A stretch of DNA of 64,000 bases, taken from NCBI GenBank assembly GCA_044341565.1, contig JBIIRM010000003.1, forward strand, positions 45,187 to 109,186. Reading direction: 5' to 3'. Positions 1 through 7,290 of the stretch are shown here, in pieces (the stretch's first letter is position 1; every line of letters begins with the position of its first letter). Position numbers and translations under genes: made by a program. The notes below the pieces were generated by a model that was not told the origin of the DNA, made no database searches, and worked only from the letters and a program-made list of their open reading frames with translations. The stretch comes from Minisyncoccia bacterium (GTDB lineage Bacteria > Patescibacteriota > Minisyncoccia > SW-4-49-11).

Positions 1-2
1 AA

Positions 3-1067
3 GGTGGTCCAGGAACAGGTAAATCAGTTGTAGCTATCAATCTTCTTGTAGAATTAAATCGTCGAGGTAAAATGTCTCAATATGTTACTAAAACATCCGC
101 CCCTCGAGATGTTTATTTTGAAAAACTAAGAGGAGAGAAAAGGATGATTGAATTAAGGTCTTTATTTGTCGGTTCTGGTACTTTTATCAATGCTCCTGAG
201 AATATAATCAACACATTGATAATCGATGAGGCTCACCGTTTAACAGAGAAAACAGGTTTCTTAAAAAGGGGGGATAATCAAATTAAGGAAATTCTAAAAT
301 CTTCCTTGTCTTCAGTATTTTTTATTGATGAAGACCAACGGGTTTCTGTTGCTGACTATGGGGAAATAGGTGTCATAGAAGAGTTAGCTAAAGAGCTTGG
401 AATAACTGTTCATAAGCAGAAACTAGAATCTCAATTTAGATGTAATGGTTCAGATGGCTATTTAGCTTGGGTAGATAATATTCTTCAGATTAAAGAAACC
501 GCAAATTACGATTTAAGTTCTCTTGACTATGAGTTTGATTTTAAAGTATTTGATAATCCGCTAAAGCTACAAGAGGCTATTTACGAGAAAAATGAGATTA
601 ATAATAAAGCTCGTTTAGTAGCAGGTTATTGTTGGAAATGGGTTAGTAAAAACGATCCATCCGCATATGATTTTAAGGAAGAGGAATTTGGCTTCAATAT
701 GCGTTGGAATATGACGGATTATGGAGGTAAGTGGATAATAGACCCTAACTCAGTTTCTGAAATAGGCTGTATACACACAGCTCAAGGACTAGAGGTCGAT
801 TATGTAGGGGTTATTATTGGGAATGATTTAATCGTTAGGGATGGTGAAGTATTAGTCAATCCAAAAGAGAGAGATAGTGGCGATAGAACTATTTTTGGTT
901 GGAAAAAAGGAATTAAAGAAAACCCAGATTACTGGAATCCATTATTGAAAATGATAATAAAAAATACCTATAGAACTTTAATGACAAGAGGAATGAAAGG
1001 GTGCTATATCTATTGTACTGATCCAGAGACACAAGAATATTTTAGAAAATTATTAGAGAGAAAGTAA
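3..1067 (+). CDS. DUF2075-type P-loop NTPase / helicase-like protein, 5'-truncated by the window edge
   Basis: The ORF runs in frame from the window edge (GGPGTGKSVVAINLL = Walker A at nt 3-47). IIDEAHRL is a DEAH-like Walker B. The C-terminal region (AGYCWKWVS...IHTAQGLEVDYVGVIIGNDL...) matches the UvrD_C-like tail typical of the DUF2075 family. Confidence 0.6.
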   Translation, partial: GGPGTGKSVVAINLLVELNRRGKMSQYVTKTSAPRDVYFEKLRGEKRMIELRSLFVGSGTFINAPENIINTLIIDEAHRLTEKTGFLKRGDNQIKEILKSSLSSVFFIDEDQRVSVADYGEIGVIEELAKELGITVHKQKLESQFRCNGSDGYLAWVDNILQIKETANYDLSSLDYEFDFKVFDNPLKLQEAIYEKNEINNKARLVAGYCWKWVSKNDPSAYDFKEEEFGFNMRWNMTDYGGKWIIDPNSVSEIGCIHTAQGLEVDYVGVIIGNDLIVRDGEVLVNPKERDSGDRTIFGWKKGIKENPDYWNPLLKMIIKNTYRTLMTRGMKGCYIYCTDPETQEYFRKLLERK

Positions 1068-1188
1068 AAATATGAATGTGAAGGATGTAAATATAATCAA
1101 CCACATAAACATAAGGGGAAATATGCCAAAATTATGGATTGGGAAAAGGGGAAAGTTATTAGGTTTGTTGATCTCATAAAAAAATAAT

Positions 1189-3066
1189 ATAAAAATTAAA
1201 TCTCTCCAAATCTCAAATATACTTAGCTTCCCCCATGTCGAAAATATAGAAGTTGCTCCAAAAATCATCTTTGATAAAGATTTAAGTATTCTTATTGGTC
1301 AAAATGGTTCAGGAAAATCAACAGTCCTAGAAATAATAAACTTTATTTTTAGGAGAGTGATTTTTATTCCATATAACAGAAATACAGATTTATATACTAA
1401 AAGAAACACAATTAATTCTAATGAAAAGAAGCAAATATTATCACAAATACATAATATTTCATACTATCATGGTTTTCGTCTTGATAGGAATTACGATTTT
1501 GAAAATAATGAACAAAAAATACGAGTTGTTGTTGAGTTGGATAATATTGATTTAGATAATATTGCACATCTTAAAAATAATACAGACCAGTTATCACCAA
1601 TAATTGATATGTATTCGGCTGAGCAAATGTTTGGAGATGGGGTAATACAAGAGGAGTATCAATTAGATATTATCTTAAATAGTACAAATAAAACCTATAT
1701 CGTCGAAACTAATCAAGATATTGGATATACTTATTTAAGAGCATATAATCTATATAAAGAGATGATAGAAATATATAATGAAGAGAACTTTGATGCTCCA
1801 ATCAAAAATTTAGCTGAATCATTTTCATTGATTGGGGGATACAGGAATTATAATTCTTATGCTACTCATGTTTCTCTTGGTGCTGGAGAAACCTCAATAA
1901 AACAAATTCAGGAGATTAGGGTTTCTGAGTCTTCAAGGAGTGCAAATTCTGTAGAAAATACTGAGCCTTCCATTTTTAGTTTAGTTCGATTGAAAATGGC
2001 TGGTCAATGTTTTGACTTAATAGGTACTAATGCAAATCAGCAAGAATGTGAAGCTACTGCAAATAATATGGATTTTATAAGAAGTATCAATGATAAACTC
2101 AAAATTATTAATCTTAGAGTAGAAATTAAGCTTCTTGATTATTCACGCTGGAATTTTACTTTTTCTTTTGTTGATATCAAAAGAGGTAGAGATATTTCTG
2201 ATATAAATGTTTTGAGTGCTGGGCAAAAGGCAATTATTCATTTAATATTTGAGGCGTATGGACGAGGTTATTTACAAGGTGGGTTAGTGATTATCGATGA
2301 GCCTGAAATACATTTACATTATCAGTTTCAAAGTGAATATATTCGTGTGATAGAGAAATTAAACAGCGAACAGGATTGTCAGTACATCTTAGTTACGCAT
2401 TCTGAATCTCTCATAAATTCGGAGACTATAGATAATGTTGTACGCTTATCTCTGGATGAAAAGGGTTATACTAAAGTTAATCAACCAGTCATTAAAACTG
2501 ATCAAAAATGGCTTGTTAAGATTTTAGATAATATGCGTTCTACTCACGCATTTTTTGGAAGTAAGATTTTATTGGTAGAAGGAGAAACAGATCGTTATTT
2601 TTTCCGTGAGGTTCTAGGAGAGATAGAGGAGAAGTTAGGGAAAGGATTAATTCAAGATATAACTATATTATCTGTTGATAGTAAAAATAATTTTACAGAG
2701 TGGAAAAACTTATTCAGTACCTTTGGGCTAAAAGCTTTTTGTATTGGTGATTTAGATTATGCATTTATTTTTTATCCTAAGGAGAAACAAAGTAAGATTA
2801 AAAACTTAAAACAAGTTACCGAGTTTTTAAATGATCATCCAGACGTTATTTCAAAGATAGAAGGAGAGTATCAAAATGGAACATATATTTTAAAAGAGGG
2901 GGATTTAGAGATGTATTTAAATATTAAAAAAGATCTTAGTAACGTAATATATTTTTGTCAGAACAATCTCAAAACATATCTTGCAGATAGTAAAAACTCC
3001 AAAGTACAAGAATTGAAAAGAATTATGGCTTGTATTACGGGTGAGAATGAAGCTGATTTGTGGTGA
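1189..3066 (+). CDS. OLD-family ATP-dependent endonuclease (ABC-type ATPase head + C-terminal Toprim)
   Basis: Walker A GQNGSGKST lies at 1303-1329, upstream of the GTG at 1357 called by the ORF track. The ABC signature is LSAGQK, Walker B is LVIIDEPEIHLH and the H-loop is ILVTHSE. The Toprim motifs are LLVEGETD and CIGDLD. The in-frame reading has no ATG/GTG/TTG between the TAA at 1177-1179 and the Walker A, so the placed start (ATA 1189, which would give MKIKSLQISNILSF) is provisional. Confidence 0.75.
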   Translation: MKIKSLQISNILSFPHVENIEVAPKIIFDKDLSILIGQNGSGKSTVLEIINFIFRRVIFIPYNRNTDLYTKRNTINSNEKKQILSQIHNISYYHGFRLDRNYDFENNEQKIRVVVELDNIDLDNIAHLKNNTDQLSPIIDMYSAEQMFGDGVIQEEYQLDIILNSTNKTYIVETNQDIGYTYLRAYNLYKEMIEIYNEENFDAPIKNLAESFSLIGGYRNYNSYATHVSLGAGETSIKQIQEIRVSESSRSANSVENTEPSIFSLVRLKMAGQCFDLIGTNANQQECEATANNMDFIRSINDKLKIINLRVEIKLLDYSRWNFTFSFVDIKRGRDISDINVLSAGQKAIIHLIFEAYGRGYLQGGLVIIDEPEIHLHYQFQSEYIRVIEKLNSEQDCQYILVTHSESLINSETIDNVVRLSLDEKGYTKVNQPVIKTDQKWLVKILDNMRSTHAFFGSKILLVEGETDRYFFREVLGEIEEKLGKGLIQDITILSVDSKNNFTEWKNLFSTFGLKAFCIGDLDYAFIFYPKEKQSKIKNLKQVTEFLNDHPDVISKIEGEYQNGTYILKEGDLEMYLNIKKDLSNVIYFCQNNLKTYLADSKNSKVQELKRIMACITGENEADLW

Positions 3067-3118
3067 AGTATGGAATCGCCTTATATAGATGCTATAATAA
3101 ATCTATAAACAATAATCT

Positions 3119-3358
3119 ATGAAACTCTTTCGTTATCGTAAACCATCTCTCAAAACATTACTTGGAGTGACAAAGCTGAAGCGTAGGATAAAGAAGGCTA
3201 CGGGAATTTCTGCTATTCAATCTCTCAGTCCTTCTCGAGTTAAGCAAAAAATAAAATACAATATAGGGTATAATAAACCTATTTTTAAACATACCAGAGA
3301 ACTGAGCAAGGGCAAAGTCCCAAGTTTATTCGGCTGGTTTTCAAAATTATTTAAGTAA
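3119..3358 (+). CDS. small basic hypothetical protein (79 aa, Lys/Arg-rich)
   Basis: The ORF lies immediately downstream of the OLD gene on the same strand. No recognisable domain. Confidence 0.3.
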   Translation: MKLFRYRKPSLKTLLGVTKLKRRIKKATGISAIQSLSPSRVKQKIKYNIGYNKPIFKHTRELSKGKVPSLFGWFSKLFK

Positions 3359-3387
3359 TAAAAAAAATCCCCCGGCTAGGCGGGGGT
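3358..3387 (-). terminator. GC hairpin (CCCCCG...CGGGGG) with an A-run on the plus strand, i.e. a T-run on the minus strand
   Basis: Seen in sequence at 3369-3386 with A10 at 3358-3367. Orientation fits a minus-strand transcript arriving from the right (ORF 3457..3741). Confidence 0.45.
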
Positions 3388-3456
3388 GGGGGAGATGTTG
3401 ATTGACTTCAGATTTCCCCTGTGAGTTGCAGCACGAGAATGCGCTGCTTCTCCCGC

Positions 3457-3741
3457 TCAGGGGGGGAGAGGATGTTTTTGTCCTTCATGAACAAAGAATC
3501 CGTCCTCTATTCCTTCTTGGAGCAAGCTGTCTGCCAACTTCTGCTGGCTGAATGTGAGTCGACTGAGGTTGGGCTTCTGGTTTGCCAAACGGCGGAGAGC
3601 ATCTTGCATCCCCGAAGAATAAACACCCATGATGCAGTTGCAATTTGCTAAGACAACATAGCATATTTTATCAATTTTGTCAATAGGTAATAACTGAAAA
3701 TTCCTTATATCAAAAAGCAAAATCCAATTAAATTCACTCAA
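3457..3741 (-). CDS. hypothetical protein (94 aa) in a GC-richer segment
   Basis: The ORF ends just upstream of the minus-oriented terminator hairpin. No domain recognised, and the competing plus-strand ORF 3421..3651 overlaps it. Confidence 0.25.
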   Translation of the reverse strand: MSEFNWILLFDIRNFQLLPIDKIDKICYVVLANCNCIMGVYSSGMQDALRRLANQKPNLSRLTFSQQKLADSLLQEGIEDGFFVHEGQKHPLPP

Positions 3742-3782
3742 AGCCTGGTTAAGCGGCTGACCGCAAGACTATTTTCGAGCAA

Positions 3783-4184
3783 ATGCTCCTCGCTACAGGG
3801 AAGTATACCGTTCTAAAAGGGGGGTATGAGCATACTATGCCCTTGGTTGCTCAGATTTCTCGGGAGTTAGAAGAGGATAAGGTTCTGGAAGGAGTAAGAA
3901 AATCTCCTGATTTTATCCTTATTAATAAAAAGCATCCACATGTTGATTTTATTGAAGTAAAATATCATAAAGATAGAAACTCGACTTATATTCTGGAAGA
4001 TACTCAGGAAATTCACGCATTCTGGCCGCATGCAAAATTATTTGTTGCAACACGAGAAGGATTCTTCCTGGATACCTGTTCTGACATTATTAAATATCAC
4101 AATATTCAGCCCTTCTCAGACCATATTGTGTCATCAGAGCTACAAGAAGATTATCTAAAGATTTTGAAGAAGTTTTTGAGGTAA
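3783..4184 (+). CDS. hypothetical protein with PD-(D/E)xK-like motif (candidate nuclease fold)
   Basis: SPDFILINKKHPHVDFIEVKY gives PD ... D-x-E-V-K spacing typical of the PD-(D/E)xK restriction-endonuclease-like core. The assignment rests on the motif only. Confidence 0.35.
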   Translation: MLLATGKYTVLKGGYEHTMPLVAQISRELEEDKVLEGVRKSPDFILINKKHPHVDFIEVKYHKDRNSTYILEDTQEIHAFWPHAKLFVATREGFFLDTCSDIIKYHNIQPFSDHIVSSELQEDYLKILKKFLR

Positions 4185-4265
4185 GAAAAAGCAAGTAATA
4201 AAAACGTTGAGTTCAAGTAATATCAGAAGAAGTATGATAGTATATAAGATAGAATATTATATACT

Positions 4266-5192
4266 ATGAGTGAGGATATTATTGATACTAAAAAATTAGA
4301 GAGGCTAAAGGCTCGGGTGAGTACTATTGGAAATCTGATAGGTATTGTTGGGTGGTTGAGTGTGCTGGTGATGACTCCGATATATGTATATTTGGGGTAT
4401 AAAGACAATATATTTACTGGTTTTGTTGGGATTACGGATATTGTATTAAGTATTTTATTGTCCAGTGTTTTTATTATTCTTGGAGCTCGTATTCGAGATG
4501 GGGTGGATATGAATATCAAGAAGTATGTGCAGGTCCTGATAACTATATTGATCTGTATATTAATATTATATTGGTTGGCTGAGAGTTTAGGAGGTGTCAT
4601 TATGTGGCTGGGTATAGGCTTACTTGTGTTTTTGATATGTTCTTGGTTTATAGTTGGTAATATAGTTAAGAAAAAAGAATTTGCAAAAACTCTTTCTAAA
4701 CCTGTATATAAGTATTTTGATAAGAAGGGTTGGATTATATTTGTGTTATCTAGTGTGATTTTGATGACCGGGGCTGTGTTTATTGATCTGACATTAGATG
4801 ATGAGATGTATTGGGACTCATTGTCAGAAGAGGAGTATAGTGAAGAGACAGATAATAAGCTTGCTGCTATGGTGGCGATATTAAATGATAGACCTTTTCC
4901 GAGTAAATTGAGTGATAACATTACTCTGTTAGGAATTAAGGAGCAGCAATCTGGTTCTATTCAATATACATATGAAATACAAAATATAGATTCGAGTCAA
5001 TTATCTACGGAATTCCTTAAGGATTTAATGGTTCAAGAGTACTGTAGTAGTGAATTTTTTAATTATATTCTAGACCAAGAGATAGATATTGCGCATTCAT
5101 TTACAACGGAGAAAGGTGAGAATTATTTTGTTACTCTTGATTTTAGTAGTTGTAAATCTTCTTCATCTAATCTTCTATACAAATCCATATAA
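4266..5192 (+). CDS. membrane protein (4 predicted TM helices) with acidic soluble C-terminal domain
   Basis: Hydrophobic stretches (IGIVGWLSVLVMTPIYVYL etc.) with coding-like composition. The overlapping minus ORF 4223..4921 is low-complexity and is rejected. Confidence 0.5.
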   Translation: MSEDIIDTKKLERLKARVSTIGNLIGIVGWLSVLVMTPIYVYLGYKDNIFTGFVGITDIVLSILLSSVFIILGARIRDGVDMNIKKYVQVLITILICILILYWLAESLGGVIMWLGIGLLVFLICSWFIVGNIVKKKEFAKTLSKPVYKYFDKKGWIIFVLSSVILMTGAVFIDLTLDDEMYWDSLSEEEYSEETDNKLAAMVAILNDRPFPSKLSDNITLLGIKEQQSGSIQYTYEIQNIDSSQLSTEFLKDLMVQEYCSSEFFNYILDQEIDIAHSFTTEKGENYFVTLDFSSCKSSSSNLLYKSI

Positions 5193-5203
5193 ATTGGTAT
5201 AAT

Positions 5204-5647
5204 ATGGGATATATGAATGCTGAGATGGCTATACAAATTAATCAATGGATAGATAGATTTCATAATCCTAGTTATTGGATTATATTTTGGGTTATTGCCT
5301 TGTATATCCTATTAGAATATACGATTTTACCCACAAAGAAAATCCTATTGAATACGGTATATAGTCGTATAGTCTTATATACTAAATTTGGTCTTCTCCT
5401 CTTTACCTTTTCTATTGCCTTATCTCAAAGTGTATTGGGTGGTTGTGCTATTCAGTTAATTCAGAATTATCTGGCGGTCAATTATCTAGACAGAGAATAT
5501 TGGTATCCTTTTGGTTTGGTATTCCGTGAGCAATTAGCTCCTCAATTTTGGATTTGGCTCAGATTATTATATGGGGTGCTTACTATAGGATATGGATTCT
5601 GGATTTATCGGTATTATCGTTTTGTGAAAGGAAAGGTGGGGGAGTAG
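5204..5647 (+). CDS. small membrane protein (3-4 TM)
   Basis: Hydrophobic ORF, Trp/Tyr-rich, immediately after the previous membrane protein. Confidence 0.45.
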   Translation: MGYMNAEMAIQINQWIDRFHNPSYWIIFWVIALYILLEYTILPTKKILLNTVYSRIVLYTKFGLLLFTFSIALSQSVLGGCAIQLIQNYLAVNYLDREYWYPFGLVFREQLAPQFWIWLRLLYGVLTIGYGFWIYRYYRFVKGKVGE

Positions 5648-5653
5648 AAAACT

Positions 5654-5697
5654 GTCCACACCCACCACTGACGTGGTCCCCCCTCGCCAGCGAGGGG
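5654..5697 (+). repeat. GC-rich double-hairpin dispersed repeat, copy 1 (GTCCACACCCACCACT..GTGGTCCCCCCTCGCCAGCGAGGGG)
   Basis: A near-identical copy lies at 12888-12930 and an inverted copy at 62290-62334. Each copy contains two hairpins (ACCAC..GTGGT and CCCTCGC..GCGAGGG). Confidence 0.8.
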
Positions 5698-5791
5698 CAA
5701 AGATGGGTGTCGTATATATTAAACTACTGACAATCTTTGACAAAAGATACTGTTTTTGATACTATTAGCTAGACCTTAAAAGGTGTACTTT

Positions 5792-6391
5792 ATGATTCGT
5801 CCTCTTGCAGCCCTTGGTGCTGCAATGCTTCTCACTACTGCTTGTGCCTCGGCTCCAACCAAGATATCTGCAGCGCCTGTTCAAACGCCTTCTTTTCTGA
5901 GGGCTGTGGGGACGGGTGAGAGCAATCGCTTCGGCAATCCTCTTATTCGAGTGGAGATGTACGCTGAGGGTCAGCTTCAAGGCTCTGTATTGGCTGTTTC
6001 TGGAAGAGCTCACACTCAAAACAGGAATAGGCATATTGCAGGGACAGAGGCTCCTTTGCCAGATGGTCTCTATACGGTGGATAATCAGGTTTATCCTTCC
6101 ACCAATCCACAGACTGCTGGTCAATTCCTCCCGATTTGGCCACAATTCCCAACTGGGCGTACTGAGCTTGGATTCCATCTGGATCCTAGCTACAATATTG
6201 ACCCAAAAGAGGATGGTACTCAAGGCTGTATTGGTTTCACCACTGCAGCAGATAGAGCCAAGCTATTCGGTTGGATTTCTAAGCATAAACCACGCTATCT
6301 CGAGGTGAATCTCTCATGGAAAATTCCTCCCGCCAAGTCGCTATCGGCCTTGGGGCTTTTGCCCTCTCGCTGGCATCAGTACCGGCATTGA
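5792..6391 (+). CDS. secreted protein, divergent YkuD-like (L,D-transpeptidase-fold) candidate
   Basis: ATG at 5792 with SD AAAAGG upstream, signal peptide MIRPLAALGAAMLLTTACASAP. Motif FHLD-x13-TQGCIG parallels the YkuD H-x(14-17)-[ST]HGC[IV] spacing with His replaced by Gln. GC is ~53% against the AT-rich backbone. Confidence 0.4.
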   Translation: MIRPLAALGAAMLLTTACASAPTKISAAPVQTPSFLRAVGTGESNRFGNPLIRVEMYAEGQLQGSVLAVSGRAHTQNRNRHIAGTEAPLPDGLYTVDNQVYPSTNPQTAGQFLPIWPQFPTGRTELGFHLDPSYNIDPKEDGTQGCIGFTTAADRAKLFGWISKHKPRYLEVNLSWKIPPAKSLSALGLLPSRWHQYRH

Positions 6392-7031: not shown

Positions 7032-7100
7032 AATGTCAAAAATTGACGGTTCTGCTGGAATATAGCATATTTTAGCTATTTTGTAAAGGGGTTATAACAT

Positions 7101-7290
7101 AAAAGAAAAAGCCCCCCTCGTCGTAAATGGGATTTACTCCTGGGAAACCTCTCGGTGTTCCAACCTTCCTCCACGGGAAAACTCCCGTTTCCCCGACCCC
7201 TTTCCCAGACTATCTTGAGGTGGAATTTTTATACCGTTTAGAAATAACTGAGAATTGATAAAAAAAACCACCTCAGGATAGAGGTGGATA
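7101..7290 (+). repeat. ~160-190 bp intergenic repeat, copy 1 (second copy at 8752-8915)
   Basis: AAAGCCC(C/G)CCTCGTCGTAAATGGGATTTACTCCTGGGAAACCT(C/T)TCGGTGT(T/C)CCAACC ... CTTGAGGTG.A.TTTTTATAC.G.TTAGAAATAACT.AGAATTGATAA.AAAAAAC is shared by both copies. Copy 1 carries a ~30 nt insertion (TTCCTCCACGGGAAAACTCCCGTTTCCCCGA). Both copies sit in the 5' upstream region of minus-strand genes, in the same relative orientation. Confidence 0.75.

Follow-up and report, generated by a model that had tools for sequence, protein, structure and literature searches.

The window analysed here is a stretch of 64,000 nucleotides (nt) from a Minisyncoccia bacterium (assembly GCA_044341565.1, contig JBIIRM010000003.1, positions 45,187 to 109,186), and all coordinates refer to its + strand. 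Positions 1189..3066 hold a full-length coding region of 625 codons plus a TAA for an OLD-family ATPase-nuclease, as indicated by Pfam, by the PADLOC model 'Old' and by homologues of ~625 residues. Where members of the family have their start codon (1189..1191), this gene has ATA. The OLD frame is closed upstream by an in-frame TAA (1177..1179), which is followed in frame 1 by 59 codons without ATG, GTG or TTG, beginning with AAA AAT AAT ATA (1189) AAA ATT (1195) AAA TCT CTC. The first of the three canonical codons in the frame is a GTG at 1357..1359, from which the listing of open reading frames (ORFs) derives a product of 569 residues (1357..3066). The original prediction for this locus, that no canonical start lies between the TAA and the Walker A motif, agreed with both the sequence and its translation; the motif, which it had put at 1303-1329, is actually 6 nt away at 1297..1323, still upstream of GTG 1357. 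ATG, GTG and TTG together make up 2.9% of the codons of the gene, and a stretch of 56 codons without any of them is expected with P ~0.19. Thus, the start-less stretch is not improbable by itself, and the anomaly rests on homology, that is, on those codons being coding.

The 625-residue product read from 1189 matched Pfam families AAA_15 (residues 3-409), AAA_21 and SMC_N, and the OLD-like TOPRIM domain PF20469 was detected at residues 455-523 (E 2.8e-12). The best PADLOC model for this protein was 'Old', AriA models matching the ATPase part only, and the best PDB match was 6P74, the Class 1 OLD protein of Thermus scotoductus (E 6.6e-8). A protein database search yielded 734 relatives, the best of which have ~625 residues and align along their entire length (100%) at up to 77% identity; where a source name was given, it was mostly that of a Patescibacteria/Candidate Phyla Radiation lineage. 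A scan of a genome collection with the Walker A pattern (and IIDEPEIH) gave, among the matches listed, distant relatives only. In an alignment of 30 sequences, residues G37, N39, G40, G42, K43, S44 and T45 of the Walker A motif (P-loop, GQNGSGKST) were invariant, as were all columns from I368 to H377, which correspond to the Walker B/D-loop region IIDEPEIHLH (residues 368-377, 2290..2319), intact in the window. The signature motif LSAGQK and the H-loop THS also fell at invariant columns. The TOPRIM nuclease domain (2551..2757) retains E464 (in VEGETD) and D521-x-D523, and E464, D468, D521 and D523 were invariant in the alignment. An N-terminal ABC-type ATPase with all of its motifs is therefore joined to a C-terminal TOPRIM domain with its Glu and DxD, as in the OLD family. 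By these features the gene is an OLD-family ATPase/TOPRIM nuclease gene, with a predicted function in anti-phage defence.

Among the classes of this family, the window gene is most similar in architecture to Class 1 OLD proteins (phage P2 Old, TsOLD 6P74, Vibrio cholerae OLD and E. coli YbjD), in which ATPase and TOPRIM occur on one chain without a fixed partner gene. Neighbours were heterogeneous in 33 non-redundant homologue loci, with no conserved partner, consistent with the stand-alone organization of Class 1. However, sequence similarity to the studied Class 1 members is only distant, the Patescibacteria subfamily is longer (~625 residues versus 528 in TsOLD), and, unlike these relatives, the window copy lacks its ATG. 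Other classes were considered and rejected. For Class 2 (Gabija GajA), the UvrD/PcrA/Rep-like helicase GajB would be encoded immediately downstream, whereas here the downstream gene is a 79-residue ORF without a Pfam or PHROG match, and the upstream helicase is of the DUF2075/Schlafen type and not UvrD. For Class 4 (PARIS AriA-AriB), ATPase and TOPRIM would be separate proteins, whereas here both are on one 625-residue chain. For the retron-associated Class 3, no reverse transcriptase was found in positions 1-6000, and the window as a whole matched no Rfam retron family.

To locate the start of the gene we relied on its homologues. When ATA 1189 is counted as residue 1, position 3 of the AAA_15 profile aligns with residue 3 of the protein. 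Most of the best 120 homologues begin with MKIKSLQISN exactly at the ATA position (in a few the called gene is longer or cut short), and the product of the window reads IKIKSLQISN from there. An alignment-based metagenome scan provided 47 homologous loci (an earlier scan with the single protein had given none), and the codon aligned to 1189-1191 in them was ATG in 44, TTG in two and GTG in one. ATA, ATT or ATC did not occur as the start codon in any of the 47 (0/47), and considering these loci together with the best 120 proteins, ATA at this position was confined to the window. One sub-lineage (L059/L060), whose annotated start gives 'MALQVSN', actually has TTG at the ancestral position. The 20 nt on the 3' side of the ATA are identical to those of locus L009. 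On this alignment the ancestral start of the OLD gene is position 1189. Since ATA is restricted to the window, the simplest history would be one G-to-A transition in an ATG (nt 1191). The original prediction had proposed such a point change together with a MKIKS-type N-terminus in which ATA 1189 is read as Met, had named comparison with orthologues as a way to check it, and had denied that GTG 1357 is the true start. The homologues, which begin at the MKIKS position upstream of the Walker A motif, bear out this view of the N-terminus, the profile and the aligned codons speak against the GTG in the same way, and the point change is strongly supported.

A change of this kind may also be an error, and a departure of one base from the family consensus is what a sequencing or assembly error would look like if the organism truly had ATG. 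We found, however, that a Logan contig (L061, from SRR27335585), reached through the neighbouring gene for the 79-residue protein, is 100% identical to window positions 119-6358 (6,240 nt), including the ATA and an A7 run just upstream of it. An identical 569-residue call is also present on a contig of 106,013 nt, which both JGI (sample 3300059473) and NCBI (GCA_041447055.1) list, and the same product is called on Logan contigs. Because gene callers would otherwise have picked the 625-residue ORF, a call of this length implies that this contig of different length has no ATG either. In addition, base 1191 lies outside any homopolymer. Thus, the ATA appears to be a real base and an assembly artefact is unlikely; that the organism itself carries ATG we consider extremely improbable, and the sequencing error that the original prediction had allowed for loses most of its appeal.

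The annotated alternative is that the gene functions through the 569-residue protein translated from GTG 1357. This protein was chosen by all gene callers, the database entry for the window's own protein is this JGI/NCBI call, and AGGAGA occurs directly before the GTG. This product would lack residues 1-56, including the invariant P-loop, although these 56 codons are conserved as protein like the rest of the gene, and it would not be expected to work as an ATPase. The ATPase domain was described as essential for the Class 1 protein YbjD (PMC13261556). The AGGAGA abuts the GTG without a spacer in a genome that makes hardly any use of Shine-Dalgarno sequences, and the initiation context of the GTG scored only -0.24 bits. 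We regard a functional GTG product as scarcely credible, and the GTG as not being the biological start.

The context scores come from a position-weight matrix built from 41 ATG-start genes of the window. In this genome Shine-Dalgarno sequences are nearly absent; starts are preceded by A-rich sequence, have T at -1 in 31 of the 41 genes and have A at +4. By eye, T at -1 was also seen in ~40 of the 47 starts of OLD homologues, which come from many Patescibacteria contigs. ATA 1189 scored 6.83 bits and outranked 90% of the real starts; against random sites the figure was 99.6%. The near-cognate ATT two codons downstream (1195..1197), judged from sequence and context a possible alternative weak start, reached 4.0 bits, more than 71% of the real starts in the window. 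RNA around 1189 is predicted to be unstructured (minimum free energy -4.07 kcal/mol, z -0.43). Of the start codon itself, the first two bases are retained and the third alone differs.

An intact initiation region may suggest that AUA is a bona fide selected start that holds the nuclease at a very low level, in which case a perturbation of IF3 proofreading, for example by phage infection, could raise expression. Such an explanation, which would parallel the AUU start of infC, would agree with the lack of decay in the gene, with the unstructured context at 1189, which few starts in the window surpass, and with the three or more origins of the weaker starts TTG and GTG within the family. Initiation at AUA in E. 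coli was reported to reach 1-2%, or 0.02-3%, of that at AUG, the latter range being given also for near-cognate codons (bioRxiv 10.1101/063800). On the other hand, ATA was found in one lineage only among the 47 loci and the best 120 proteins, and purifying selection generally maintains AUG starts (PMC5622118). Moreover, no other tested gene of the 64 kb needs a non-canonical start, and this also led us to reject such starts as a genome-wide habit. In about 50 long ORFs of the window the stop upstream is followed after at most a few codons by ATG, GTG or TTG. The seven genes whose start-less leaders are longest all have their Pfam domains downstream of the first ATG (7/7). A selected AUA start is therefore doubtful, although it deserves to be kept in mind. 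A more specific form of it, in which AUA 1189 would be a selected working start that keeps a self-toxic OLD protein at trace levels, with IF3 stringency as the possible control and phage stress raising synthesis, appears improbable.

The region upstream of the ATA offers other routes into the frame. Positions 1..1067 contain the 3' part of a gene for a DUF2075/Schlafen-group-3 helicase (620 residues in full; Pfam PF09848, E 1.2e-84), the end of which is 121 nt from the OLD start. A 35-codon ORF (1072..1179), which shares the OLD reading frame, begins with an ATG 4 nt after the helicase stop, has an internal ATG at 1123 and ends with the TAA 9 nt before ATA 1189. The A7 run, also present in L061, occupies 1178..1184, and loss of one A would join ATG 1134 (frame 3) to the OLD frame. 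The gene might thus be expressed with an N-terminal extension, either by read-through of TAA 1177 from ATG 1072 or 1123 or by slippage (transcriptional or ribosomal) at the A7 run from ATG 1134. In a weaker variant, ribosomes that terminate at the end of the 1072-1179 ORF would re-initiate at AUA, 9 nt further on. The required geometry is present in the sequence, and the context of ATG 1072 is good (4.83 bits; 1.56 bits for ATG 1123). Coupling is also common in the family, as the OLD start overlaps the stop of the upstream gene or lies at most 9 nt from it in 14 of the 33 non-redundant loci. Nevertheless, homologues start at the MKIK position without any conserved extension, the context of ATG 1134 is poor (-2.56 bits), and we found no evidence that slippage is used at the A7 run. 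Read-through of UAA and slippage on seven A's are rare and no more efficient than initiation at AUA. Homologues of the 35-codon ORF or of small upstream peptides were detected neither in the fetched loci nor elsewhere in the window, and the upstream intergenic region showed no homology to other loci; a suspected likeness of the upstream peptide to the N-terminal extension of P0045 was not supported. Altogether, expression through an extension is very unlikely. No sigma-70-like promoter was found on the + strand between 900 and 1500, and the OLD gene may be co-transcribed with the helicase.

Apart from its start codon, the gene appears undamaged. All 625 codons are open, whereas a shuffled ORF meets a stop after ~10 codons, and 5.6% of the possible point changes in the OLD ORF would be nonsense. 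In a leave-one-out conservation test over 114 full-length family members, changes private to the window protein affected one of 138 columns conserved at >=97% and four of 214 columns conserved at >=90% (M1I, L294M, V353I and L385I). The window ranked 59th of 114 for changes at conserved columns, a value typical of peers with similar terminal branches. This ranking and the small number of conserved-column changes give no sign of relaxed constraint. Of the properties expected of a functional gene, the open frame and the conserved residues are present and a canonical start at the family position is missing. The mutation would therefore either be young, with less than ~1% of neutral divergence since it arose, or be one that the function of the gene tolerates. 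The closest OLD relative in the protein database, at 77% identity, is too distant to bracket the age of the mutation.

Several relatives carry other lesions. In L056/L057, from two JGI samples, 1 nt is deleted within the Walker A codons (L056 ~700-970). Frameshifts occur near codon 83 in L058 (~2250-2510) and L033 (2336-2800), that of L058 in an A8 run. A nonsense codon in L044 is absent from its near-identical twin L045. Apparent breakage in the OLD subfamily is thus recurrent but varied, with five different lesions in five lineages including the window. That varied disabling mutations recur in the family argues against a selected AUA start, as loss would be common and a hit in the start codon one more route to it.

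Taken together, the most probable explanation is that a recent ATG-to-ATA mutation cripples a stand-alone Class-1-like OLD gene or leaves it with leaky AUA expression. One G-to-A transition at nt 1191 would have turned the ancestral ATG into ATA, which is an ordinary kind of event. Two of the three positions of AUA could still be read by the initiator fMet-tRNA, and the surroundings are unstructured and A-rich with T at -1, as is typical of this genome, so that initiation might persist at 1189 (or at ATT 1195), probably at ~1% of the ATG level. Given this residual pairing and the good context, the allele may severely reduce the expression of a costly defence gene or be a knock-out of it that arose very recently, and the ATA would not be an evolved special start. 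The change probably cuts translation to ~1% or switches the OLD gene off. It should be noted, however, that several points weigh against this explanation. The figure for AUA was obtained in E. coli, with Shine-Dalgarno sequences, and may not transfer to the Shine-Dalgarno-poor Patescibacteria ribosome. An undecayed gene fits a long-standing, selected AUA start as well as a recent mutation, and the sequence fits a leaky and a dead allele alike. The independent contigs that carry the ATA may come from the same or related samples.

Two kinds of known cases can be compared with the crippled start proposed here. Different species share the AUU start of infC, which functions within an autoregulatory loop; unlike it, the ATA of the window is a one-off in a single lineage, with no sign of conservation. 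What the window gene would share with near-cognate starts (AUU in infC and pcnB; AUA, AUU, AUC and CUG in E. coli) is an AUN codon at a genuine start and low-level initiation by fMet-tRNA (10.1101/063800). It also resembles start-codon-loss alleles and young defence pseudogenes, in having one point lesion, an intact ORF, a location in a variable island and relatives that are otherwise lesioned, with the difference from such pseudogenes that the loss of function is here putative.

The evidence for an island comes from the surroundings of the gene. On the parent contig, MazG-like and DUF2726 genes lie ahead of the helicase gene. A copy of the downstream 79-residue gene (window 3105-3393) occurs at 92% nt identity on an ENA contig (L062), but there unrelated genes (>679 and 305 residues) replace the helicase and OLD, with Fic/RhuM and Bro-N genes downstream. 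Pfam and PHROG searches with the small downstream ORFs and with the replacement genes gave no matches. Comparison of this contig with the window suggests a putative swap site for cargo genes. In the protein database, relatives of the housekeeping protein MurE are 88-100% identical, whereas none exceeds 77% for OLD. This difference and the replacement in L062 place the OLD gene in a variable island.

In the 33 homologue loci, neighbouring genes encode methyltransferases, HsdS, MutH-like, Mrr, HNH and ResIII proteins, recombinases, DUF2130 and others, and are mostly restriction-modification or defence genes. Thus, contrary to the description of Class 1 OLD as a 'single isolated gene' (PMC10568477), the subfamily usually sits among restriction-modification genes. 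The DUF2075 helicase was not among the Pfam families adjoining the gene in these loci, and an RVT_1 neighbour occurred in one of the 33. A more detailed look at part of the loci (L021, L034/L035, L015/L016, L031/L032, L014, L017 and L024-L026) revealed that the OLD ATG overlaps the stop (ATGA) of genes for HsdM-type or N6/N4 methyltransferases. In L021 and L034 the upstream gene is of the HsdM type, and OLD apparently separates hsdM from hsdS; three loci have HsdS after OLD. Elsewhere OLD abuts MutH/Sau3AI-like or HNH genes. We also considered whether the window gene is an orphan nuclease that is counter-selected for want of a methyltransferase, and rejected this idea, as an upstream methyltransferase is present in only five of the 33 loci and neighbours are heterogeneous.

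Two further regions of the window were noted. Adjacent Rfam tRNA matches at 15198-15261 and 15268-15368 (53 and 45 bits) were both left uncalled by ARAGORN. Midway along the anticodon arm, the first has 3 nt instead of the 11 of the model. The second has a long variable region and, in the place of the 7-nt anticodon loop, 28 nt. Between 6600 and 9600 the G+C content is higher (41-45%) and long ORFs are few. This region contains a module of ~170 nt repeated at 7094-7267 and 8744-8884 (84-92% identity) and four copies of a terminator-like element consisting of TAAGAAAAA plus a G/C-rich hairpin; no Rfam family matched there.

With regard to annotation, the deposited 569-residue protein (JGI, NCBI) is an artefact of a forced canonical start, and the locus would be better described either as a pseudogene or as an OLD gene of 625 codons whose start is non-canonical or mutated. 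The case adds one more example of the rapid turnover of defence genes. If AUA is functional in this organism, the gene would lend itself as a natural test of near-cognate initiation by a Patescibacteria translation system that works without Shine-Dalgarno sequences.

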